DNA of 64,000 nucleotides from Candidatus Pampinifervens sinense (GCA_037927135.1 JAXSPP010000007.1:15494-79493); one strand, 5' to 3'; positions 8 to 39,407 are shown, counted from the stretch's first letter. Translations and numbers: made by a program. The notes: generated by a model not told the origin, from the letters alone.

Positions 8-3000
8 TTGTTCAAAGGCCTTTGTCCCAACTGTGGAGGAGATATTAGCGCAGAAAGGCTCAGTCTAGGCCTTCCTTGCGAGAGGTGCATGCCAAAGGTG
101 GAAAAGGATTACTGTAGGCATATGTTAAGGGAGGGAGAGCTCAGCAAAGTGTGCCACATGGAAGAGGAGCTAAAAAGGTGGGAAAAGCACTTTGAAAAGC
201 ATCTTAGGTCCAAGCCTTGGAGCCTTCAGGAGAGCTGGGCAAAGAGGGTGTTCCTTGGAAACTCCTTTGGCCTTTTGGCACCCACCGGCGTGGGTAAAAC
301 CTCCTTTGGTGTATCTATGGCAAGCTATTTGGCAAAGAAGGGCAAAAAGTCTTACATAATACTTCCTACCAAGGTATTGGTAGATTTGACAGTCCAAAAA
401 CTAAAAGGCTTTGGACTAAAGGAAGAGGACATACTTTACTTTTCCGATGATAGTGCAAAGCAAAAAGAGATAAAGAAGGCAAGACTGCAAGAGGGGGACT
501 TTAAAGTTCTTGTTAGCACCTCCATGTTCTTATACAAAAATCAGGAGATCATACCCAAAAACTTTGACTTTATCTTTGTGGATGATGTGGACTCCTTCTT
601 AAAGACGGCAAAGAACATAGACAAGCTTTTACTTCTTCTTGGCTTTGATATGGAAGATATTGATCTTGCCATGAGGCTCATAAGGCTAAAGGAAAAGAGG
701 AACAAGGATGAAGAAGATTGGGAGGGGCTAAAAGAGCTTGCAGAGAAAGTAAAGGAGGTTTCCAAAAAGAGAAGGGGTGTGCTTGTGGTATCTTCGGCCA
801 CTTCCAACCCAAGGTCAAGCAGGATAAAGCTCTTTAGAGAACTCCTTGGCTTTGAGGTGGGCACACCCACCTTCTACCTTAGGAATGTGGTGGACCTGTA
901 CGAGGATATAAACAAAAGGCCTTTGGAGGAGTGGATTAGACTCCTTGGCAAGGGTGGGTTGCTCTTTATACCTTCAGATAGAAAGAAGGAGTTTGTGGAT
1001 GAGGTGGTCTCTTACCTTCAGGAGAAGGGCATAAGGGCTGTCTCCTATGAGAAGCTTGACGATGAGGTGCTAAAAAGCTACGAAGAAGGTGAGATAGACA
1101 TACTTGTGGGCATATCCTCTTACAGGAATCCTCTTGCCAGAGGCATAGACCTGCCCCATGTGATAAGGTATGCCATCTTTTACGGAGTTCCGAAGATAGT
1201 CATCTCTTTGAGGTTTGAAAACAACCTTTCTCACCTCTTGTGGGCCCTTATGTCTTTGAGGAGCCTTGTGGCCAAAAGGCTACCGCAAAGGCTAAGAGAT
1301 ATAGATAGATGGCTTGAAAGCTTGCAAAGGTACCAGTATTTGACGGAGGAGTTTTTAAAGGACAGGCCAGAGCTTGCACAAAGGATAGAAAGGCTAAAGG
1401 AAGAGGTGGGAAGCTTTTTAACCTCCCAAGAGGTGATTGACCTTCTTATGAGCTCTGAGGAGATAACCCTAAGGAAGACGGAAGAAGGCTACCAGATGGT
1501 AGTATCGGACGCCACTGGCTATCTGCAGGCAAGCGGCAGAACTTCGCGCATGTTCGCCGGAGGCATCAGTAAAGGCCTTAGCCTTCTTCTCGTTGATGAC
1601 AAAAGGGCCTTCAAACACCTCATAAGGAAGGTAAAGTGGTTCAATGAAGATATAAACTTTAAAGGCTTGGAAGAGGTAAACCTTGAAGAGCTATTAAAAG
1701 AGGTGGACAAAGATAGGCAGAAGATAAGGGCCTTTTTACAAGGGGAAGAAAGGCCACAAAACAAAGAGGTTCTAAAGCCTGTGCTTATAGTGGTGGAGTC
1801 TCCAAACAAGGCAAGGACCATAGCCAACTTCTTTGGCAAGGCTGTAAGGAGAAGGGTGGGGGACCATGAGCTTATGGAGACCTCAGCAGGAGATAGATAC
1901 ATAATGATCACCTCAAGCTTTGGCCATGTTTTGGACCTAAACAAGGAAGAGGGCTTTCACGGTGTTTATGTGAACGGCAAGCCTGTGCCTGTGTATGAAG
2001 TCATTGAAGGCAAAGACAGGATTGTGGAAAGCCTAAGGCGTATGGCCCTTGAGGCACAAGAGGTGCTCATAGCCACAGACCCAGACACGGAAGGGGAAAA
2101 GATAGCATGGGATCTATCAGAACTACTAAAGCCCTACAATCCAAACATAAAGAGGATGGAGTTTCATGAGGTCACCAGAAAGGCTATAGCCAAGGCTATA
2201 AAGGAAACGAGGGACTTTGACTATAACTTGGTAAAAGCCCAAGTTTTAAGAAGGGTTGCGGACAGATGGGTAGGCTTTGAATTTTCAAGGCTTTTGCAAC
2301 ATGCCTTTGGCAAGCATTGGCTCTCTGCGGGTAGAGTTCAAACACCTGTTTTGGGATGGATCATACAAAGGGAAAGAGAATACAGACAGAAGATATACAA
2401 GGTGGTCTTTCCTATAGATGAAGAGGGAAGGTTGAGGGTAGAGTGGGTCTTTGAAGACAAAGAGTCTGCCCAAAGCTTTTATGAAAGACTTTCCAAGGTG
2501 CAAGTGGAGCTTTTAGAAGAGAGGGAAGAGGATAGGAACCCTCCACCACCCTTTAGCACAGATACTATGCTAAAGGCTGCAAGCGATGCCTATAGGTGGT
2601 CTTTGCCAAAGACCATGAGCCTTGCCCAAACCCTCTTTGAGCTTGGTTATATAACCTACCACAGGACAGACTCCACAAGGGTATCGGACTACGGTATAGG
2701 AGTGGCCAAGGAATACATAAAGGAGGAGTTCGGAGAGGAGTATTTCCATGCGAGGGTGTGGGGAGAGGGAGGAGCCCATGAGTGTATTAGGCCTACAAAG
2801 GCCATAGAGCCGGAGGAGCTAAGGGCCTTGGTCTTGAGCGGTCAGGTGGAAGGGCTAACGAGGGATCACCTTTTGCTCTATGGTCTTATCTTCAACCGTT
2901 TTATGGCAAGCCAAATGAGGCCTGTAAGATTAAAGGTTTTGAAGCTAAGGGTTGAGGCTTTGGATAGAAGTCAAGAGGTAGAGGTGCCAGTGCAGATATT

Positions 3001-3433
3001 GCAAGACGGCTTCAACAGGCTTTTGCCGGTGGAAGTTTATAGGCCCTTGCTTGGCACTCTGGATGTGTCTCAAAGGAAGAATATGCTCTCAAGGCCAAAG
3101 GCCTACCTTTATACCCATGGAGAGCTTGTTCAGGAAATGAAAAGAAGAGGCATAGGAAGACCATCAACCTACGCCAGCATAGTGGAAAAGCTCATAGAAA
3201 GGGGCTATGTGATAGAGAGGAAAAGCTTTCTTATCCCTACCAATCTTGGCAAAGAGGTTTATAACTACCTTAACAGTAGAGAGGAGATAAAACACTTTCT
3301 TGAAGAAGAGTTCACAAGGAGGCTTGAGGAGCTTATGGACAAGGTAGAGGCAGGTGTAGAAGACTATGTAGATATACTTATGAAGCTCTATAGAGATATA
3401 ATAGAAGTTGATAAAAAATTGGAGGTGTTGTGA
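8..3433 (+). CDS. rgy: Reverse gyrase (helicase-topoisomerase IA fusion); 5' end possibly outside the window
   Basis: 1141-aa ORF. N-terminal Zn finger CPNCGG..PCERC. Helicase Walker A APTGVGKT and FVDDVD box. C-terminal topo IA module with VESPNKA, DPDTEGE and ITYHRTDS. The ORF starts at TTG nt 8 and stays open to nt 2, so the true start may be upstream. Confidence 0.95.
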   Translation: MFKGLCPNCGGDISAERLSLGLPCERCMPKVEKDYCRHMLREGELSKVCHMEEELKRWEKHFEKHLRSKPWSLQESWAKRVFLGNSFGLLAPTGVGKTSFGVSMASYLAKKGKKSYIILPTKVLVDLTVQKLKGFGLKEEDILYFSDDSAKQKEIKKARLQEGDFKVLVSTSMFLYKNQEIIPKNFDFIFVDDVDSFLKTAKNIDKLLLLLGFDMEDIDLAMRLIRLKEKRNKDEEDWEGLKELAEKVKEVSKKRRGVLVVSSATSNPRSSRIKLFRELLGFEVGTPTFYLRNVVDLYEDINKRPLEEWIRLLGKGGLLFIPSDRKKEFVDEVVSYLQEKGIRAVSYEKLDDEVLKSYEEGEIDILVGISSYRNPLARGIDLPHVIRYAIFYGVPKIVISLRFENNLSHLLWALMSLRSLVAKRLPQRLRDIDRWLESLQRYQYLTEEFLKDRPELAQRIERLKEEVGSFLTSQEVIDLLMSSEEITLRKTEEGYQMVVSDATGYLQASGRTSRMFAGGISKGLSLLLVDDKRAFKHLIRKVKWFNEDINFKGLEEVNLEELLKEVDKDRQKIRAFLQGEERPQNKEVLKPVLIVVESPNKARTIANFFGKAVRRRVGDHELMETSAGDRYIMITSSFGHVLDLNKEEGFHGVYVNGKPVPVYEVIEGKDRIVESLRRMALEAQEVLIATDPDTEGEKIAWDLSELLKPYNPNIKRMEFHEVTRKAIAKAIKETRDFDYNLVKAQVLRRVADRWVGFEFSRLLQHAFGKHWLSAGRVQTPVLGWIIQREREYRQKIYKVVFPIDEEGRLRVEWVFEDKESAQSFYERLSKVQVELLEEREEDRNPPPPFSTDTMLKAASDAYRWSLPKTMSLAQTLFELGYITYHRTDSTRVSDYGIGVAKEYIKEEFGEEYFHARVWGEGGAHECIRPTKAIEPEELRALVLSGQVEGLTRDHLLLYGLIFNRFMASQMRPVRLKVLKLRVEALDRSQEVEVPVQILQDGFNRLLPVEVYRPLLGTLDVSQRKNMLSRPKAYLYTHGELVQEMKRRGIGRPSTYASIVEKLIERGYVIERKSFLIPTNLGKEVYNYLNSREEIKHFLEEEFTRRLEELMDKVEAGVEDYVDILMKLYRDIIEVDKKLEVL

Positions 3434-6335: not shown

Positions 6336-7236
6336 GATAATCCCTTATCCCATCCTCTAACCTATACTTTGGCCTGTAGTCCAAAAGCCTTTCCGCCTTT
6401 GATATATCTGCTTGAGTGTGCTTTTGATAAAAGTCATAAGGACAGTCAAAGTATTCCACCTCATAGTTTGTGCCAAGGTATCTGTTTAAGATATCCACAA
6501 TTTCATTAAAGCTTCTTGCCTCTCCTGTAGCTATGTTAAAAATGCCTGAAATATCTTTTTCTAAGGCTAAAAGGTTTGCCTCAATAACGTCCTCTATGTA
6601 GACAAAGTCCCTCTTTTGCTCTCCCCATTTGAAAAGCCTTGGCCTTTTGCCTTCCTTCATCTGCCTGTATAGCTGGTATATCATGCTGGCAGTCTTCCCT
6701 TTGTATTGCTCACCCGGTCCATAGACGTTAAAGTATCTAAAGCCCACCACTTGAATGTGTTTGTTCTCTTCCATAAAAGATAAGGCTATGCGATCCATCA
6801 TAAGTTTGGAAAAGCCATAGATGTTCTCTGGCACCAAGCCTTCTTCTTCCCTCATGGGAGGAGGGCTGTTCCCATAAACGCCCGCAGAGGAGGCATATAT
6901 TAGCTTAGCATTCCAATAAAGGCATGCACTCAATATATACCTTAAGCTGTCCGCATTTACTCTTAGCATCTTAAACTGGTCCTGCACCGTTGTGTCCGTT
7001 ATGGCACCTTTGTGAAAGACCACATCAAAGGTAAAGTTATTTTTTAGCCATTCCCAAAGCTCTGGGTCTGAGAGGTCTCCCGTTATCACCTCTCCTCTAA
7101 AGCCCAGAAGGTTTTTAAAGTGTCCTGAAGAGAAGTTGTCTAAGACATAGACCTTTGCCTTGGGGTAGCGCCTTTCAACGGCCTTTGCCAAATTGGAGCC
7201 TATAAAGCCCGCACCGCCAGTTATCAAAACCCTCAT
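6304..7236 (-). CDS. hldD: ADP-L-glycero-D-manno-heptose 6-epimerase (SDR epimerase family)
   Basis: 310-aa ORF. Rossmann motif TGGAGFIGSN, catalytic YGFSK, and the blocks VGFRYFNVYGPGE..KG..AS, KRDFVYIEDV and TQADISK. These match my memory of E. coli HldD, which is also 310 aa. Confidence 0.75.
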   Translation of the reverse strand: MRVLITGGAGFIGSNLAKAVERRYPKAKVYVLDNFSSGHFKNLLGFRGEVITGDLSDPELWEWLKNNFTFDVVFHKGAITDTTVQDQFKMLRVNADSLRYILSACLYWNAKLIYASSAGVYGNSPPPMREEEGLVPENIYGFSKLMMDRIALSFMEENKHIQVVGFRYFNVYGPGEQYKGKTASMIYQLYRQMKEGKRPRLFKWGEQKRDFVYIEDVIEANLLALEKDISGIFNIATGEARSFNEIVDILNRYLGTNYEVEYFDCPYDFYQKHTQADISKAERLLDYRPKYRLEDGIRDYLERLGESIRS

Positions 7237-8732
7237 CTTCTCTTACCTTTTTTCTTGGCAGGTTTTTCTTCCTTAAAGGTTAGCCTCTTTATCACATAAG
7301 TTTGACCAAGGTTAAAGATGTTGTTGAGTGTCCAATAGAGCACAAGGCCAGCGGGGAAGTTGGCAAAGAGGAAGGTAAAGAAGACAGAGCTTATGATCAT
7401 TATGTAGTTTTGGGATTTTTCTGGGCTTGGGCTTATGAACTGCTGAGCTATCATAGTAATGCCCATGATCACAGGAAGTATGTAATATGGATCCTTTTGG
7501 GCAAGGCTTTGTATCCAGAGGAACTTGGCAAGCTGTAGGTCTGCCGTTATGGTAAGCACCTTATACAGGGCAAAGAAGATGGGTATCTGCAAAAGGATGG
7601 GAAGACATCCAGACATGGGGTTAAAGCCCACCTCTTGGTAGAGCTTCATCATCTCCTCTTGGAACTTAACAGGGTCGTTCTTGTACTTTTCCTTTAGCTC
7701 TTGCATCTTTGGTGCAAGCTCGGCCATCTTGCTCATGGCCACAGTGCTCTTGTATGTGAGGGGGAACATGAGAAGTCTAACTATTAAAGTGAGGGCAATA
7801 ATGGAGAAGACCCAAGAGTGAAGATGTTCGTATATCCAATACATAAAGATAAATAGGGGCTTTACTATAAGCCTTAGAGTGCCAAAGTCTATGGTGTCGG
7901 AGAGACCTATGGCCCTTAGCCTTGAGTACTCTTTGGCACCGGCGTAGAAGAGAAGCTTGCCATCTGGCTTTACCAAGGTAATTGTGTTTTTATTTTCTAT
8001 CTTATAAATTGCTACCGCCGAAATGGGGCCAGAAAAACCCTTAAAGTAATACCTGCTTTCTTCTCCAGCAAACTTAATATCTCCAGTTATAAGCTGTTTT
8101 CCTTCCACCTTTTCCACATCTATCCTCTCCACACTGTCGCCTATCTTCACTATAGGACCCGCATGGGTGAAAAACTCATCCTCTTGAACCCTCATACCAG
8201 CGGAAACAAATACAGAAGGAAGGCCTGAAGATTCTATGCTTAGAGAAAAGTAATCACCTTTATACTCCAATATCTTTTTAATCTCAAAGTTTTCGGCCTT
8301 TAGCCTTGCCACTATCTGGTTATTTTGGGTATAGACCTCGTAGCGCGAAAAGTTAAGAAGGTAGTCTATCTGTGGGTCTCCTGTGAAGACTTCAAGTGGG
8401 TATAAGTTTAGCCTTTTTTCCTCTTCCGTTATAAGCTCCCTTTTATACTTTTTATCCGTCAAGCTTACTACCTTTGCACCCTCCTCTGAGAGCACCAGAC
8501 TAAACCTTTCAAAATCAAAGGTTCTCAAGTTTCTAGGTTTTTCTTTTTCTCTTGAAGTTCCAAGGAGCAAAGAGGGCACATCCTTTATAGTTTCTTTGAC
8601 TTGTCTTTGAACCTGCTGTGAAGTTTCTTGTGGTGCAAACAGGATAAGGTAGGCTTGATAAGCAAAAAGAAAGAGGGTTATGACTACAAAGATGATAAAG
8701 AGCTTTTTAAGGTCCAGATCGTGTCTTTCCAT
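7233..8732 (-). CDS. yidC: Membrane protein insertase YidC
   Basis: 499-aa ORF. N-terminal TM, large periplasmic domain, and a C-terminal 5-TM core (IVRLLMFPL, GCLPILLQIPIFFALY) with a basic tail. It sits in the conserved rpmH-yidD-yidC context. Confidence 0.93.
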   Translation of the reverse strand: MERHDLDLKKLFIIFVVITLFLFAYQAYLILFAPQETSQQVQRQVKETIKDVPSLLLGTSREKEKPRNLRTFDFERFSLVLSEEGAKVVSLTDKKYKRELITEEEKRLNLYPLEVFTGDPQIDYLLNFSRYEVYTQNNQIVARLKAENFEIKKILEYKGDYFSLSIESSGLPSVFVSAGMRVQEDEFFTHAGPIVKIGDSVERIDVEKVEGKQLITGDIKFAGEESRYYFKGFSGPISAVAIYKIENKNTITLVKPDGKLLFYAGAKEYSRLRAIGLSDTIDFGTLRLIVKPLFIFMYWIYEHLHSWVFSIIALTLIVRLLMFPLTYKSTVAMSKMAELAPKMQELKEKYKNDPVKFQEEMMKLYQEVGFNPMSGCLPILLQIPIFFALYKVLTITADLQLAKFLWIQSLAQKDPYYILPVIMGITMIAQQFISPSPEKSQNYIMIISSVFFTFLFANFPAGLVLYWTLNNIFNLGQTYVIKRLTFKEEKPAKKKGKRR

Positions 8733-8938
8733 CAGGGATAATCCACACCACCCTTAGAAAAGGGGTTGCATCTTAGCACTCTCCACACAGCCTTGATCAT
8801 ACCCTTAAGAACTCCATGCTTTTCCACAGCCAATATGGCATACTCAGAACAGGAGGGGTAATACCTACAGCTAGGAGGGTAAAGGGGAGATACGAACATC
8901 TGCCAAAACCTAAGTAAGCCTATAACCACCCTCTTCAA
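8732..8938 (-). CDS. yidD: Membrane protein insertion efficiency factor YidD
   Basis: 68-aa ORF with the YidD signature [20 protein letters not shown]. The TTG start overlaps the rpmH stop. The stop overlaps the yidC start. Confidence 0.85.
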
Positions 8939-9078
8939 GGTGCCAATCTCTTCCTTCCCTTTTTCCTTCTTCTCTTTATTATAGCCCTTCCACTCTTGGT
9001 AGCCATACGGGCAAGGAAACCACTTTTTCGCTTACGCTTCAGATTGGAGATACGCGTTACATTCCTTTTGGTAGCCAT
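8935..9078 (-). CDS. rpmH: 50S ribosomal protein L34
   Basis: This gene is below the ORF-track size cut-off. Hand translation gives [47 protein letters not shown], which carries the L34 signature GF.ARM.T..GR...RR..KGRK.L. GGAGG lies 6 nt upstream of the ATG at 9078. Confidence 0.9.
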
Positions 9079-33040: not shown

Positions 33041-33889
33041 ATGGACTTTTTAGGAAAAGAACAATCACCCTTAACCTTTGAAGAGTGGAACCAGCTGGAG
33101 AAGGCTATAATTGAAGTTGCGAAAAAAACGCTTGTATGTAGAAGGTTTATGCCCGTTGTTGGCCCAATAGGTGTGGGCCATCAGGTAATATCTTATGATG
33201 TTTACCTTGGTGTGGAGCCAGGTGTATGTGAAGTAAGACCTGGGGAGGAAAGCGAACAGTGTGAGCCTGTAAGGACTGGAAGAAGAAGGCATATAGTCCT
33301 TCCAACCATATACAAGCCCTTTAGTATAAGCTGGAGGGATTTAGAATACTACAGGCAGTTCAACCTTCCCATAGATACATCTCAAGCTGCTGCGGCAGCC
33401 TTTGCCACAGCGGTGGCGGAGGACACTCTCATAATACATGGAAATCAAAAGCTGGAGATAGAGGGCCTTTTGACGGTGGAGGGAAGGCAAAGTATGTCCA
33501 TGAGCGATTGGGATGTGGTGGGCAATGCCTTCAACGATATATCCCTCGGTATAGCCAAGCTTTCGGAAAAGGGCTTTTACGGAGACTACTACCTTATACT
33601 AAACCCAAAGGACTACTTTAAGCTAAACAGGGTATATCACAACACGGGCCTTTTGGAGATTGAACAGATAAGAAAGCTTGTAAAGGATATATACTACACG
33701 CCCATAATGCCAGAATCAAAGGCATTGCTTGTATCGGCAGGACCACAGAATATGGACATAGTCATAGGCCTGGACTTTAGCCTTGCCTATGTGGAATCTA
33801 CCAACATGGTGCATCACTTTAGGGTTATGGAGATAGTGGCACCGAGGATAAAGAGGCCTGGGGCCATACTGGTGATAGGGGAGAAGTGA
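33041..33889 (+). CDS. Family 1 encapsulin nanocompartment shell protein (Linocin M18-like, HK97 fold)
   Basis: 282-aa ORF with AGGAGG upstream. Several blocks align with my memory of Thermotoga maritima encapsulin: N-terminal SPLT..EW..L......A...L..RRF....GP.G, EDTLIIHG, GDYYLILNP.DY, and C-terminal IVIGLDFSLAYVE......FRVMEI.APRI..PGAILVI. Confidence 0.85.
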   Translation: MDFLGKEQSPLTFEEWNQLEKAIIEVAKKTLVCRRFMPVVGPIGVGHQVISYDVYLGVEPGVCEVRPGEESEQCEPVRTGRRRHIVLPTIYKPFSISWRDLEYYRQFNLPIDTSQAAAAAFATAVAEDTLIIHGNQKLEIEGLLTVEGRQSMSMSDWDVVGNAFNDISLGIAKLSEKGFYGDYYLILNPKDYFKLNRVYHNTGLLEIEQIRKLVKDIYYTPIMPESKALLVSAGPQNMDIVIGLDFSLAYVESTNMVHHFRVMEIVAPRIKRPGAILVIGEK

Positions 33890-35733
33890 AGGAAAAGTGG
33901 AAGGTAATAGAAAGGCTACTTTCTGAAGAGTATGATATTGAGGTACAGGGAAGTTATGAGGGGTGGGGTGCGGGCTACGACCCTAAGTTTTTACCCCTTA
34001 CGGAGATGTGGGCAAAGGGGGAGGTGGAGGATGTGCCGGAGGTGGTAAAGAGGCCAGCGGGGGTGGTCTTTCATATACAAGAGCTTTCAAAAAAATCGGA
34101 AGAGGAGGCCATAAACACCATAAGGCATGAGATTGAATATCTCTTTTCCACAGACCTTTATCTTTGGAGGCTTGGCCAGAGAGAGTTTTACAAGTTTGGC
34201 TTTACCCCCACCTCCTTCCTTGTGCTTTACTCTGTGCTTGAGTCCATAAAGACAGACTCAAGGATAATAAACAGCCATCCTCAAAACCAGTCAACAATCA
34301 TAAAAAACTACGAAGAGATTCTAAAAGAGATAGACACCTACTATCCACATCACAATTTTTCCCTTAGCCTTTTGAAGTCATGGCTTGGAAGGGAAGCCCT
34401 TCCCAAAGATACGGAAAGGATACTCTATGAATACTTGAACTCAAAAAACAGAGAAGCCTACGACATACTTATGGAAGACCTGCTTGGAAAGTATATAGCC
34501 CATATAGAAAAGGCACAAGAGATAAACTATATAGACCTCCTTTTGGATGAGGCGAGGGGAAAGGTAAGAAAGGATGCCCACAAGGGCAGGATAATGACGG
34601 ACCTTCTCAAAAAGCTTCCAAAGGCTTTGCAAGAGGTCATAATAGAACACAAGGAAAAGAGGGCTATAGATATACCGGAGGAGAAGAGGAAGGAAATAAT
34701 AAAGAGCCTGAGGAACATGCCCGACTGGATGAGGGACTACTTAAAACAGATGTCCTACTTGGATATGATAGAAAGGGATGTGGAGTTTATAAGGCACTTT
34801 TTGCCAAAGACCTTGGAGGTGGATATAGAGCATAGGGGTTTCCTTAGCTTTTTGATAAAGGGGTGGGAGGAACAAAAGAGCACAGCTTCCAGCGGTTTGA
34901 GCCTTGGGGGAAGGTCCGAAGAGAAGTCTCAAGAGGACAGGCTGTATGAAAAGGCCTACGGGATGAACAAGGAGGAGTTTAAGGCCTACAGGAGGATGAT
35001 ATCAAACATATTGCCCTATGTGGAGGCACTAAAGAGAAGGCTTAGAAAGCTAATGCCTGAGGAGGAGGAAGGCTGGTCTGGAAAATACTTTTATGGAAGA
35101 AGGCTTAACCACAAAGTCCTAAGCTTGGAGGCTTCCATAGGAAGGGGGAGGATGTACATGAGGAGGGAAGAAGGCATAAGAAAGGAGCTTGCCTTTAAGC
35201 TTCTCATAGATATATCCACATCCATGAAGAGGGAGGAGAAGATAAGGAAGGCTATAGAGGCCCTTCTTTTGTTCTCTGAAGTCATAAGCACTCTGAGGAT
35301 GCCCTTTTCCATTGATGTGTTTAGCGACAGGGTGTTTAGATTGAAGGAATTCCATGAAGATTACAAGCTTGTAAGGTGGAGGATTTTGGAGCTTTTTAAC
35401 ATGCTTGGTGGCGGAACAAACCTTGAAAAGGCCCTCCTTTACGCATATGAAGATATACAAACCTTTTGTAAGAAGAACAACATAAGAGGCTGTATCCTTG
35501 TCTTCTCCGATGGTGAGCCCACAAGGGGCCTAAAAGGAAAAGAGCTAAAGGACCTTATAAACCAGATAAAGGCCATCACACCCATAATAGGCATAGGTGT
35601 AGGACTAGAAAAGAACTATGTGGATTACTACTTTGAAGGCACTGGGATAAAGATAAAGGATGTGTCTGAGCTTACCTTAGCCTTTACAAGGATAATAGAA
35701 AATCAGGCAAGGAGGCTTCTGGCCTTTCAATAA
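33886..35733 (+). CDS. NorD/CbbO/CobT-like protein with C-terminal von Willebrand factor A domain
   Basis: 615-aa ORF. The GTG start overlaps the encapsulin stop (GTGA). The C-terminal vWA domain has a full MIDAS set: DISTS at nt 35209-35223, GGGTN, and FSDGEPT. It is preceded by a GRRLN.K.L...........MRRE segment typical of NorD/CobT-type proteins. The N-terminal 420 aa or so are unassigned. Confidence 0.75.
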   Translation: MKEKWKVIERLLSEEYDIEVQGSYEGWGAGYDPKFLPLTEMWAKGEVEDVPEVVKRPAGVVFHIQELSKKSEEEAINTIRHEIEYLFSTDLYLWRLGQREFYKFGFTPTSFLVLYSVLESIKTDSRIINSHPQNQSTIIKNYEEILKEIDTYYPHHNFSLSLLKSWLGREALPKDTERILYEYLNSKNREAYDILMEDLLGKYIAHIEKAQEINYIDLLLDEARGKVRKDAHKGRIMTDLLKKLPKALQEVIIEHKEKRAIDIPEEKRKEIIKSLRNMPDWMRDYLKQMSYLDMIERDVEFIRHFLPKTLEVDIEHRGFLSFLIKGWEEQKSTASSGLSLGGRSEEKSQEDRLYEKAYGMNKEEFKAYRRMISNILPYVEALKRRLRKLMPEEEEGWSGKYFYGRRLNHKVLSLEASIGRGRMYMRREEGIRKELAFKLLIDISTSMKREEKIRKAIEALLLFSEVISTLRMPFSIDVFSDRVFRLKEFHEDYKLVRWRILELFNMLGGGTNLEKALLYAYEDIQTFCKKNNIRGCILVFSDGEPTRGLKGKELKDLINQIKAITPIIGIGVGLEKNYVDYYFEGTGIKIKDVSELTLAFTRIIENQARRLLAFQ

Positions 35734-36332: not shown

Positions 36333-37337
36333 ATGGATAGGTGGGAATCTTTTCTTTTTGAAGTGGCGGAAAAGGCCATAAACTACCAAAAGCTTACAAA
36401 GGAAGAAGCGCTAAACATACTGAGAACACCCGATGAATATGTGGCCCTTATGGTCTATCTTGCACAAAAGGTTAAGAACCACTTTCATCCACCCGATAGG
36501 ATAGAGTTCTGTTCTATCATAAACGCCAAGAGTGGTGCATGTTCGGAAGATTGCAAATTCTGCGCCCAGTCTAAGTTCTATAAAACACCTATAAACGTCT
36601 ATGGCCTTGTGCCAAAGGAAGAGATAGTGGAAGGTGCCTACAGGGGTGTGGAGTTTGGAGCAAACAGATACTGTGTGGTTCTGAGTGGAAAGTGTGCCAC
36701 AAGGGAAGAAGTGGAAAGAATATGCGAAGGTGTAAGGGAGATAAAAAAGGAAGGACTTCCCATAAATGTGTGCGTTTCTGCCGGAACCCTTGATGAGGAG
36801 TCTTTAAGAAAGTTAAAAGAGGCCGGTGTGAGACGTGTAAACCATAACCTTGAGGCATCGGAAAATTTCTTTCCAAAGATAGTGTCCACCCACTCTTGGA
36901 GAGAAAGGTATGAGACCATAAAGAGGATAAAGGCTGTGGGCCTCTCCACCTGTTGTGGTGGCATATTCGGTATGGGAGAAAGCGATGAGGACAGGGTGGA
37001 CCTTGCCCTAACTTACAGAGACCTTGAGGTAGACTCCATACCCCTTAACTTCCTTATGCCCATTGAAGGAACACCTTTGCAGAATGCACCGGGCATATCA
37101 CCCATAGAGGCCCTAAAGGTCATAGCCATGTTTAGGTTTACAAACCCAAAGGCAGAGCTAAGGCTGTGTGGTGGAAGGGAGCAAAACCTCAGAGACTTTC
37201 ACGGTATGGCTGTGCTTATGGCAAATGCCATGATGGTAGGTGGATATCTCACAAGGGCAGGAAGGGATATAAAGAAGGACTACCAGCTTTTAAAGGATCT
37301 AAAGTTTGAAAGGCTTGTAAAAATAGAACCTGTCTAA
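36333..37337 (+). CDS. bioB: Biotin synthase
   Basis: 334-aa radical SAM ORF with CSEDCKFCAQS, the auxiliary-cluster Cys pattern, and YLTRAGR near the C-terminus. AAGGAGG lies upstream. Confidence 0.93.
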   Translation: MDRWESFLFEVAEKAINYQKLTKEEALNILRTPDEYVALMVYLAQKVKNHFHPPDRIEFCSIINAKSGACSEDCKFCAQSKFYKTPINVYGLVPKEEIVEGAYRGVEFGANRYCVVLSGKCATREEVERICEGVREIKKEGLPINVCVSAGTLDEESLRKLKEAGVRRVNHNLEASENFFPKIVSTHSWRERYETIKRIKAVGLSTCCGGIFGMGESDEDRVDLALTYRDLEVDSIPLNFLMPIEGTPLQNAPGISPIEALKVIAMFRFTNPKAELRLCGGREQNLRDFHGMAVLMANAMMVGGYLTRAGRDIKKDYQLLKDLKFERLVKIEPV

Positions 37338-37880
37338 TTCTCCCTGTGAATTTCCTCTTTTTCTTTTTCTTTTTTTTATTTTTGTCTTCTATTTAATTAA
37401 ATTAAAAATAATAATAGGACCCCCCGAATTTCACACCCCCTTCGCAAGTGCTTGATTTTCAAGGATTTGCCGAAAAGAAATTTCACACCCCCTATGAAAG
37501 CCTTGATTTTTCTTGATTTTATGAAATCAGAAAGTCCTTGAGTATCAAGGATTTTAGAAGAATTTCACAATTTCACACCCTCTAATTCTAAGTATGGGTC
37601 TTTCTGAAATTTTTTGATTTTATACCCTGTAAAATTTTTACGGAAAATACAACACTTAGGATGGGGGGTGTGAAATTCCTTCACAGGGTGTGAAATTCTG
37701 TCCAAAAGGTGCATATACCCTGTGAAATTCTTTGTAAAAATTTTACGGAAAAAGCCATACTTAGAAACAGGGTGTGAAATTCTGCCGGGGGTGTGAAATT
37801 CCCCTGTGAAATTCTTTGAATAAAAATTATGGAAAAGGCCATACTTAGGAATAGGGTGTGAAATTCTTTTATGATTTATG
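37338..37880. repeat. Non-coding iteron-like repeat array between convergent bioB and comM
   Basis: Forward (G/C)TGTGAAATTC copies lie at 37667, 37687, 37719, 37771, 37790, 37803 and 37855. A variant is at 37343. Reverse copies (GAATTTCACAC) lie at 37426, 37478, 37560 and 37569. A longer 28-bp module, CCATACTTAG-N6-GGGTGTGAAATT, occurs 3 times forward and once inverted (37560-37597). There are three tandem units of about 83 bp (about 37625-37880). A second motif, CCTTGATTTT / AAAATCCTTG, occurs about 5 times (37451-37555). Confidence 0.85.
37355..37416. other. AT-rich tract (possible DNA-unwinding element) flanked by oppositely oriented repeat copies
   Basis: The tract tctttttctttttcttttttttatttttgtcttctatttaattaaattaaaaataataata is over 85% A+T by eye. 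It lies between the variant site at 37343 (forward) and the site at 37426 (reverse). Confidence 0.5.
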
Positions 37881-39407
37881 TCATAATGTGGGTGCCTTTT
37901 CGTTTATCCTGAACTGAAGGGCCTCTGCAATATGGTGGCTTGCTATCTTTTCTTCACCTTCAAGGTCTGCTATGGTCCTTGAGACCTTCAAAACCTTCAT
38001 ATAGCCTCTGCCTGTAAGGTTTAGCTTCTCAAGGGCACTCCTCAAGAGGTTTTTTGCCTCCTGCGTCATCACACAATACTTTTTCACCTCTTCATTGGTC
38101 ATACGTGAGTTATACTTTGTTTTGCTGTTTTTGAACCTCTCCCTTTGGATTTCCACAGCTCTAATGACCCTCTCCCTTATCTGAGCGGATGTTTCTCCCG
38201 AACTCATACTAAGAAGCTCCTCCTTTTCCACTGGGTTTACCCAGACCCTTAGGTCTATCCTATCCATTATGGGCCCAGATATCTTGGATTGATAGGCTTT
38301 TAGTTGCATTGGGGTGCATGTGCAGGCCTTGTATGGGTTTCCATAGTTTCCACAAGGGCATGGGTTCATGGCCACCACAAGCAAAAACTCTGAAGGAAAG
38401 CTCACCCTTCCTCCAACCCTTGAAACGGTAACCTTTCCATCCTCTAAGGGCTGTCTTAGAGATTCTATGGCCTTTCTGCTAAACTCTGGAAACTCATCAA
38501 GGAAGAGAACACCCCTATGGGCTAAGGAAATCTCCCCCGGCTGTGGTATGGTGCCACCTCCCACAAGGGCGGACTCTGAGGCGTTGGTAAGAGGATTTCT
38601 AAAGGGCCTTTTGGTTATTATGGGAGTCTTCTCATCCAAAAGGCCTGCCACGCTGTATATGCGTGTTATTTCTATAGCCTCTTCAAAGGTCAAGGGTGGC
38701 ATTATGGTTATGAGCCTTTTGGCGAGCATGCTTTTGCCAGCTCCTGGAGGGCCAATAAGCATTACAGGATGAAAACCCGCTGCCGCTATCTCCATAGCCC
38801 TCTTTGCTTGATGCTGTCCATAGACCTCGCTAAAATCCACATCAAAGCTTTCAAAGTTTGAAAAGACCTCTTGAAGGTCCACCCTTACTGGCTCTTTTTT
38901 TATATTACCCGCTAAAAAATCCACTACCTCTTTTAAAGATTCAAAGCCATAAACCTCCACACCTTCCACAATGCCAGCTTCCTTTGCGTTCCTCATAGGC
39001 ACTATAAAACGCCTATAGCCCAGCTCTTTCAAGGATAAAACCACCGGCAAAACGCCCTTCACAGGGTTTATCTTCCCATCAAGGGAGAGCTCGCCCATGA
39101 CCACATAATCCTCTGGGAAGTCCAAGCCTGTGGAAAGCCTTATGATGCCAAGGGCTATGGGAAGGTCGTAGAAGGTGCCTTGCTTTTTAAGATGTGAGGG
39201 AGAGAGGTTTACCGTTATCCTTTTTACTGGAAGCTGAAAGCCTGTGTTCTTTAGGGCTGACCTTACCCTGTCCTTTGCTTCGTTTATGGCCTTGTCTGGA
39301 AGGCCCACGATGGAAAACTGAGGAAGCCCGTTGGATATGTCCACCTCCACATCCACCTCAAACCCCTCTATCCCCAAAACCCCACCGCTTTTTATCCTAC
39401 AGAACAT
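37881..39407 (-). CDS. comM: YifB/ComM-family Mg-chelatase-like AAA+ ATPase
   Basis: 508-aa ORF with an N-terminal Lon-protease-like/ChlI domain, Walker A GPPGAGKS, Walker B VLFLDE, and a C-terminal helix-turn-helix-like region. Confidence 0.9.
   Translation of the reverse strand: MFCRIKSGGVLGIEGFEVDVEVDISNGLPQFSIVGLPDKAINEAKDRVRSALKNTGFQLPVKRITVNLSPSHLKKQGTFYDLPIALGIIRLSTGLDFPEDYVVMGELSLDGKINPVKGVLPVVLSLKELGYRRFIVPMRNAKEAGIVEGVEVYGFESLKEVVDFLAGNIKKEPVRVDLQEVFSNFESFDVDFSEVYGQHQAKRAMEIAAAGFHPVMLIGPPGAGKSMLAKRLITIMPPLTFEEAIEITRIYSVAGLLDEKTPIITKRPFRNPLTNASESALVGGGTIPQPGEISLAHRGVLFLDEFPEFSRKAIESLRQPLEDGKVTVSRVGGRVSFPSEFLLVVAMNPCPCGNYGNPYKACTCTPMQLKAYQSKISGPIMDRIDLRVWVNPVEKEELLSMSSGETSAQIRERVIRAVEIQRERFKNSKTKYNSRMTNEEVKKYCVMTQEAKNLLRSALEKLNLTGRGYMKVLKVSRTIADLEGEEKIASHHIAEALQFRINEKAPTL

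Follow-up and report, generated by a model that had tools for sequence, protein, structure and literature searches.

A phased array of DnaA-box-like repeats between bioB and comM as a candidate replication origin in an uncultured Aquificaceae lineage

The 64,000 nucleotides of Candidatus Pampinifervens sinense DNA analyzed here (GCA_037927135.1, JAXSPP010000007.1:15494-79493, hereafter the window) belong to an uncultured lineage of the Aquificaceae, whose nearest named relatives are metagenome-assembled genomes (MAGs) deposited as Aquificota or Aquificaceae bacterium, together with Hydrogenobacter sp. Uz 6-8. The largest non-coding gap of the window, with 543 bp (37338-37880; the next largest has 230 bp), lies between bioB (36333-37337, + strand; TIGR00433, 385 bits) and yifB/comM, which encodes the YifB/ComM ATPase (37881-39407, - strand; TIGR00368, 611 bits). 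Both genes turn their 3' ends towards the gap, as had been proposed in an original prediction made from the sequence alone, with which the gene profiles and gap lengths agree. The whole of this bioB-comM intergenic region, which contains 12 boxes of the form WWWTNCACA and has homologous arrays in six relatives, is presented here as a candidate chromosomal replication origin (oriC).

The comparison of the bioB-comM region across relatives, which had been suggested together with the prediction, recovered the same array downstream of comM in six loci, with ComM identities of 71-95%, i.e., seven arrays including that of the window. These loci are L083 (CP076324.1, a complete 1.72-Mb MAG with the array at ~263 kb; ComM 95%), L001 (an Aquificaceae MAG; 86%), L002 (Hydrogenobacter sp. 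Uz 6-8; 84%), L332 and L333 (both MAGs; 81% and 74%), and L334 (an SRA assembly; 71%). The flanks of the array are syntenic housekeeping genes in the relatives, and comM is its stable syntenic anchor.

The repeated unit of the array is a 9-mer box of the form AATT(T/C)CACA (equivalent to TGTGAAATT), present in 12 copies in the gap. The pattern WWWTNCACA is also found 12 times there, against 0.22 expected, and at most three times in any other 543-bp stretch of the window. The related motif GTGTGAAATTC, searched for with no more than one mismatch, has 11 matches in the window, all of them within 37426-37866, with 0.72 expected and none of 100 shuffles reaching 11. Four of these matches are on the - strand and are followed by seven on the + strand, which is exactly the succession of reverse and forward copies that had been predicted, and the variant copy expected beyond the AT-rich tract was likewise located (CCCTGTGAATTTC, 37342-37354). 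Outside the array, only four loose matches to the motif occur in 63.5 kb of the window, and the DNA fetched from other Aquificaceae has zero to three scattered matches outside the arrays, never clustered. No box cluster was found in the ~160 kb of other Aquificaceae loci fetched, the arrays aside, which leaves this array as the sole one in the window and among the fetched Aquificaceae loci.

On the bioB side, the region opens with a left-flank variant box (top strand TGTGAATTT; 37345-37353, - strand), placed between the bioB stop codon and the AT-rich tract, with counterparts in L332, L334, and L002. The top strand of the tract itself, a candidate DNA-unwinding element (37355-37417), is rich in T over its left two-thirds and in A further right. 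Over 37355-37416 it is 88.7% A+T, in keeping with the ~60 bp of over 85% A+T originally described, and the least stable duplex spans 37357-37417. Whether taken over 30, 60, or 100 bp, the duplex segment of lowest stability in the 64 kb falls within this tract (z = 3.9 to 4.4), and the AT-richest tract adjoins box 1 in all seven loci.

The right edge of the tract is formed by TAA TAA TAG (3'-GAT AAT AAT-5' on the top strand; 37409-37417, + strand), a DnaA-trio-like run which ends in ATAG and is also present in L333. It is followed by a G+C-rich spacer, GACCCCCCG (37418-37426), which separates ATAG from box 1 and is variable in sequence, with a length of 9 bp in all seven loci, i.e., the arrangement of ATAG, 9 bp, and box 1 is invariant. 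Box 1 (AATTTCACA; 37427-37435, DnaA-box-like, with the TTATCCACA sense on the + strand) is followed at 52 bp by box 2, of the same sequence (37479-37487, +), and 82 bp further on by boxes 3 and 4 (AATTTCACAATTTCACA; 37561-37577, +), which are 8 bp apart from start to start. An inverted composite module (37569-37612, +) is then formed by a box, N7, CTAAGTATGG, and a T-rich TTTC(C/T)G motif, all of which are kept in alignments A1 and A3.

A moderately AT-rich central spacer (37613-37649), towards which both of the opposed blocks of boxes point, leads to the comM side. There, motif scans define module A (37669-37729, - strand), with forward boxes TGTGAAATT at 37669, 37689, and 37721, module B (37733-37813, -), formed by TTTTACGGAAAAAGCCATACTTAG, N5, and boxes at 37773, 37792, and 37805, and module C (37817-37865, -), formed by ATTATGGAAAAGGCCATACTTAG, N5, and a box at 37857, which abuts the comM stop codon. 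A block homologous to module B lies on the bioB side in L083 and L001. The composite module of the original prediction is thus present, but CCATACTTAG is exact in just two forward modules (37755 and 37839), where it is followed by N5 and GGGTGTGAAATT, whereas the third forward copy is degenerate (CAACACTTAG at 37650) and the inverted copy has N7 instead of the N6 noted. Of the three tandem units of ~83 bp that had been described, two are clear, with 84 bp and 79% identity, but the third is partial and offset by 105 bp, and no ~83-bp period was reported in the array by Tandem Repeats Finder.

Each module also carries TTTTCC(A/G)T(A/T), at 37745-37753 and 37828-37836 (- strand), with equivalents in L083, L332, L002, and L001. 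The sequence TTTTCCATA in the modules matches the relaxed DnaA box TTWTNCACA at 8 of 9 positions, and the overlapping TTTTTCCAT, in L083, L332, and L002, has an 8/9 match to the Helicobacter pylori ATP-DnaA box TYATTCCWT. On these resemblances, the TTTTCC(A/G)T(A/T) elements may represent a second, weaker class of DnaA site.

A second family of motifs, which had been predicted to include a palindrome, occupies the intervals between the boxes. The palindrome TCCTTGAGTATCAAGGA was found at 37535-37551, with the form TTGA-N3-TCAA, and its TTGAnnnTCAA is kept in A1, as is the direct repeat CCTTGATTTTTCTTGATTTT (37499-37520), which is made up of half-sites of the same TTGA family. The third member is a quasi-palindrome, AAGTGCTTGATTTTCAAGGATTT (37446-37468), with a TTGA-N3-TCAA core. 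These palindromes and half-sites (37451-37463, 37499-37520, and 37535-37551) are kept in five of the six relatives, those in A1, and have the look of sites for a second, dimeric factor, which the quasi-palindrome probably binds.

The same quasi-palindrome is a 23-bp element between boxes 1 and 2 which reads AAATCCTTGAAAATCAAGCACTT in L002, L083 (11917-11939), and L001, and is precisely inverted in the window, with the flanking boxes and their 52-bp spacing left unchanged by the inversion. In both L083 and L001, one copy of the family, placed between boxes 1 and 2, is also a candidate IHF-like site, AATCAAGCACTTG, which fits the IHF consensus WATCAANNNNTTR.

Alignment A1 works as a phylogenetic footprint, in which the boxes, the TTGAnnnTCAAG palindromes, CTAAGTATGG, and ATAG are invariant or nearly so and the spacers diverge. 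Box 1 is invariant here, as are the columns of ATAG and of the A's that recur every 3 nt. The start-to-start distances of boxes 1 to 4 are 52-53, 82, and 8 bp in the window, L002, L083, L001, and L332, whereas L333 and L334 are arranged differently, with the 52-53 bp between boxes 1 and 2 also found in L333. Over the seven arrays, 86% of the distances between same-strand neighbors differ by no more than 2 bp from a multiple of 10.5 bp, where ~38% would do so by chance (n = 69, with homologous loci not contributing independent distances). The most diverged locus, L334, has two opposed arrays with boxes 9-13 bp apart from start to start, mostly 11 bp, which matches the ~11-bp packing of the low-affinity DnaA arrays of Escherichia coli oriC. 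The architecture of the array, its statistical excess of boxes, its uniqueness in the available sequence, and its conservation are thus features of the DNA itself.

The layout around the tract is more variable. In the window, L002, and L332, a block of ~170 bp, made up of boxes and TTATGGAAAAAGCCATACTTAG, is placed towards comM, and L083 and L001 have its colinear homolog on the side of the AT tract that faces bioB, while in L333 the boxes stand on both sides of the tract in one orientation throughout. Given these different positions of the block relative to the tract, close relatives switch between unilateral and bilateral layouts, both of which are functional in engineered variants of E. coli oriC (PMC13643167).

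The sequence of the box itself bears on the protein that may recognize it. The recognition helix of DnaA, in its helix-turn-helix motif, reads 5'-TnCACA-3' in the major groove, and Arg399 recognizes the 5' TTA through the minor groove (PMC5742627). In the box AAT-T(T/C)CACA, the TnCACA portion is intact (T4, C6, A7, C8, and A9), and TTA is swapped for another A/T triplet. TGTGGAATT is the prevailing box in L001 and L334, and TATTCCACA and TTTTCCACA are found among the boxes of L083 and L334, so that the family grades into the classical TTATCCACA box and the cyanobacterial TTTTCCACA box. In the Aquificaceae DnaA proteins, D433, H434, T435, and a basic residue at 399 are kept, with H439Y in the Hydrogenobacter clade, and P423 varies.

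The agreement of the core with the E. coli box, originally given as 6 of 9 positions, is in fact 5 of 9 when TGTGAAATT is counted against TGTGGATAA, and 7 of 9 against the relaxed consensus TGTGNAWAA. A link to DnaA had been called speculative for this reason among the candidates proposed; it is judged here to be stronger than that, given the TnCACA portion, the boxes of the relatives, the phasing, and the arrangement of ATAG and spacer.

The array is read here as the oriC of an uncultured Aquificaceae clade related to Hydrogenobacter, with a lineage-specific DnaA box, to which the sequence evidence lends a probability of roughly two in three. A cluster of DnaA boxes, as expected at an oriC (three or more, each within ~100 bp of the next), is obtained only with the lineage-specific box (12 WWWTNCACA in 543 bp), and the adjacent AT-rich unwinding element that would also be expected is present, in the weakest duplex of the 64 kb and beside box 1 in seven loci. 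The original prediction had proposed a site at which a DNA-binding protein oligomerizes, and the origin is favored among its readings, whereas those of a plasmid-type centromere, an RNA, or a mobile element found no support.

In the mechanism proposed for such an origin, DnaA would bind the twelve AATT(T/C)CACA 9-mers as its lineage-specific boxes, and their arrangement along a single helical face, in two opposed blocks and with intervals close to multiples of 10.5 bp, would favor its cooperative oligomerization. With box 1 held 9 bp from ATAG, at the edge of a 60-bp tract of 89% A+T, this tract would melt and provide single-stranded DNA for a DnaA filament and the loading of the helicase, which would make the array the place where unwinding and initiation occur. 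The TTGA-N3-TCAA palindromes and the modules with CCATACTTAG and TTTTCCRTA probably bind accessory or regulatory factors.

A number of observations weigh against an origin at this site. The E. coli consensus TTATCCACA, with up to one mismatch, has no match in the gap, and, as it is not enriched there, a standard origin finder would miss the site. A tblastn search found no dnaA in the 64-kb window, from which dnaN is likewise absent, and the flanking genes converge on the array instead of diverging from it. As regards the generality of the array in the family, none was found beside comM in Aquifex aeolicus, Thermocrinis minervae, and two lineages with 65-67% ComM identity. The trio-like run, besides being short, is plain low-complexity sequence rich in A+T, and box 1 is inverted with respect to the rule of Bacillus subtilis, H. 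pylori, and the E. coli R1 box.

The skew signals also belong here. In the window, GC skew and AT skew mainly follow the coding strand, without significance. The cumulative GC skew has a local maximum at the array, which is driven by gene strand, and the third-codon-position GC skew by gene strand is 0.124 and 0.061 on the would-be lagging strands versus 0.074 and -0.044. The sign of this last difference is terminus-like, at ~1.4 standard errors by our own estimate, and is not significant. The GC-skew check proposed with the original prediction thus gave, for the window, a weak signal of the wrong sign for an origin, which is undecisive in this phylum. In the Aquificae, purine-rich and pyrimidine-rich segments alternate, and the fraction of genes on the leading strand is 0.52, which is not significant (PMC4070872). 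Given this lack of a replication-linked bias in gene strand, neither skew nor gene orientation can decide here.

The position of dnaA may be considered in a similar manner. In the dnaA loci of Hydrogenobacter thermophilus TK-6 and another Aquificaceae lineage, there is no box cluster, no large gap, and no adjacent dnaN, and the usual dnaA-linked location of the origin therefore does not apply there. In the literature searched, no paper was found to establish which origin or DnaA box is the cognate one in the Aquificae, nor one that matches this box sequence. In a Hydrogenobacter-type lineage (L335, 1-6518), comM lies ~5 kb from a PNP_UDP_1 gene, and in H. thermophilus TK-6 (L087, 1-7200) a gene of the same length lies ~5 kb from dnaA, which would place comM and dnaA ~11 kb apart there if these two genomes are syntenic.

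As origin-like context, gene clusters that are origin-proximal in many bacteria are found in the window, rpmH-yidD-yidC, the classical origin-linked cluster, at 28.5 kb from the array and rpsF-ssb-rplI at 16 kb. The former spans 7233-9078, all on the - strand, with rpmH at 8935-9078, yidD at 8732-8938, and yidC at 7233-8732; no rnpA was found between rpmH and yidD in the window, and atpE and atpB come directly after the cluster.

The polarity of box 1 deserves particular attention. In the canonical order of the basal unwinding system (BUS), a 5' box in the TTATCCACA sense is followed by a GC-rich spacer, CTA trios, and AT-rich DNA (PMC8235120). The E. coli arrangement, 5'-TTATTAG-GATCGCACTGCCC-TGTGGATAA-3', which is single-copy and chromosomal in 5,419 E. 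coli genomes, agrees with this order. The top strand at the present locus reads 5'-TAATAATAG-GACCCCCCG-AATTTCACA-3', i.e., trinucleotides and spacer occupy their usual places, with box 1 reversed. The left-flank box is also non-canonical in the window, while to the left of the tract L002 and L333 carry a box in the canonical orientation.

The elements of a BUS are present at a fixed spacing, with box 1 in the opposite sense. The DnaA of Thermotoga maritima, a precedent for looser rules of orientation, forms head-to-tail oligomers whatever the direction of its boxes, and needs TAG trinucleotides (PMC10316083); the linker that joins domain III to domain IV, to which this freedom is ascribed, is long in this protein and reportedly absent in the Aquifex-type DnaA (PMC10721633). 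Given the reversed polarity of box 1 and the reported absence of this linker, the locus is not classed as an origin of the BUS type; its polarity and layout are unusual.

Several known systems resemble the array. As in E. coli oriC, with its DUE and its Left and Right DnaA-oligomerization regions, an AT-rich unwinding element at one end is followed by two opposed arrays of asymmetric TnCACA 9-mers, remote from dnaA and accompanied by sites for accessory factors. Here, however, the box begins at its 5' end with AAT instead of TTA, there are no GATC clusters, and the blocks point towards one another, in contrast to the divergent E. coli arrays (PMC13643167). In addition, the tract-proximal box is opposite to R1, with a spacer of 9 bp instead of 13 bp.

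The basal unwinding systems of B. subtilis and H. pylori share with this locus a box, a G+C-rich spacer, GAT/AAT trinucleotides, an AT-rich tract, and a strict distance between box and trios, but box 1 is inverted here, the spacer has 9 bp versus 4-5 bp, and only two to four clean trios are found. The oriC of T. maritima is likewise that of a hyperthermophile with a lineage-specific DnaA box and TAG trinucleotides along the margin of its unwinding element, and the direction-independence of its boxes, for which phasing matters, is offered as a further likeness (PMC10316083). Its box, AAACCTACCACC, is on the other hand a 12-mer, present five times, and its DnaA has the long III-IV linker (PMC10721633).

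Other readings of the array have to be set against an origin. It is rather unlikely that this is a non-origin cluster of DnaA boxes, of the type of datA, DARS, or the B. subtilis DnaA-box clusters, which would titrate or recycle DnaA while the true oriC lies elsewhere. Such clusters are also intergenic and away from dnaA, some of them with IHF sites, and the resemblance of the boxes to DnaA boxes, the lack of dnaA and dnaN nearby, and a skew and gene orientation that mark no origin would all agree with this, as would the candidate IHF-like site between boxes 1 and 2 of L083 and L001, AATCAAGCACTTG, datA and DARS also being users of IHF. They have fewer boxes, however (~5 in datA versus 12 here), and no conserved unwinding element beside them, whereas the most meltable DNA of the 64 kb is found at a fixed 9 bp from box 1 in seven lineages, for which titration sites have no need; furthermore, no other box cluster was found in the fetched Aquificaceae DNA, with its two dnaA loci.

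No likelier is an array for some other oligomerizing protein, be it centromere-like, nucleoid-organizing, or an opposed-polarity fork trap at the terminus. The two opposed blocks of an asymmetric site would suit a trap of this kind, together with the convergent genes and the terminus-like sign of the third-position skew, but opposed polarity is not conserved across the arrays, given that L333 has its boxes in a single orientation and that blocks flank the tract on either side in L083 and L001, and the skew effect is not significant in a phylum in which skew is uninformative. Known Ter sites are spread over tens to hundreds of kb, unlike the 11 sites in 450 bp found here, and no par, rep, Tus-like, or RTP-like gene is adjacent. 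The identity of the box to TGTGGATAA, at only 5 of 9 positions, also speaks for another protein, while DnaA is indicated by the preserved TnCACA and by the way in which the boxes of the relatives approach TATTCCACA and TTTTCCACA.

Iteron plasmid origins and type Ib/II centromeres, such as parC, are similar in their arrays of short repeats, in two blocks, with an AT-rich neighbor, and differ in the adjacent rep or par genes, which are lacking here, and in the chromosomal, syntenic flanks and the lack of similarity to plasmid records at this locus. A plasmid iteron origin or centromere was rejected on the conserved synteny of bioB and comM, with no rep or par gene and no plasmid or phage match, and the plasmid-type centromere of the original prediction is dropped with it.

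That the region is the gene of a structured non-coding RNA, or an end array left by the decay of a mobile element or an integrated plasmid origin, is very improbable. The strong predicted fold (z = -8.75), the repeats in both orientations, and weak, sub-threshold Rfam matches of the hairpin type can be cited for it, but the fold is accounted for by the inverted repeats of protein sites, the covariation term in alignment folding is unfavorable (+2.81), no Rfam family reaches its gathering score, and promoter and terminator counts are at chance level. In addition, close relatives have blocks moved across the AT tract, copies of the motif are not scattered, plasmid or phage similarity is lacking, and the flanks are syntenic housekeeping genes. 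The structured RNA, a fall-back of the original prediction, was rejected on the covariation, Rfam, and promoter and terminator results. A dispersed repeat of the REP (repetitive extragenic palindrome) or MITE (miniature inverted-repeat transposable element) type, which had also been contemplated, was discarded, as the motif is dispersed neither in the window, with its four loose matches outside the array, nor in the fetched DNA. When three copies of TGTGRAAWT were searched for in metagenome_contigs and viral_contigs, the matches listed were unrelated AT-rich repeats, none with the core, and the pattern proved too permissive.

Some further features of the loci examined may be recorded. An apparent cluster of three boxes in L335 (9903-10397) was rejected as a TnpB-like zinc-finger coding remnant; this uncalled stretch of 494 bp encodes a CxxC...CxxC zinc finger typical of TnpB/IS605, contains a run of N, and has TGTGGATAT codons that mimic DnaA boxes. 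In Thermocrinis sp. (L337, 6531-6960; 65% ComM identity), the 431-bp gap downstream of comM is G+C-rich and structured-looking, and contains no box array and no Rfam family at the gathering score. In two Elusimicrobia loci (L029, 3262-3822, and L041, 3268-3825), an open reading frame for a DnaA/Hda-like AAA+ protein, ~32% identical to domain III of E. coli DnaA, lies ~2.2 kb upstream of comM.

In the window itself, the gene of an encapsulin (Linocin_M18) and the overlapping gene of a 615-aa VWA-domain protein (33041-35733) form a pair that is kept beside bioB in the relatives. Inside the VWA gene, a stretch of 543 bp (35101-35644) has three matches to TTATCCACA with up to one mismatch, which is the maximum of the window and about the level of chance over 64 kb. 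A full-length reverse gyrase is encoded at the start of the window (8-3433; TIGR01054, 1369 bits), which is consistent with a hyperthermophile.

The usual predictors of origins fail in this phylum, given that skew and gene-strand bias are uninformative, oriC is apparently not beside dnaA, and the E. coli box finds nothing here. A phased, conserved array of AATTYCACA with a strong unwinding element would offer a directly testable origin and box for this Aquificaceae clade. The polymorphism of unilateral and bilateral layouts and the inverted proximal box also bear on the flexibility of oriC architecture (PMC13643167, PMC10316083).

More tentatively, and with the odds rather against it, the locus may be a functional oriC in which the tract-proximal box faces against the rule of E. 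coli, B. subtilis, and H. pylori, in a group where close relatives (95% ComM identity) naturally alternate between unilateral and bilateral layouts. If this is true, DnaA would be passed from double-stranded boxes to the single strand in a different geometry, of which the missing III-IV linker of the Aquifex-type DnaA could be the cause. This protein is the structural model of the bacterial initiator filament, and the structurally best-known family of DnaA would then gain its cognate origin and box, AATTYCACA.

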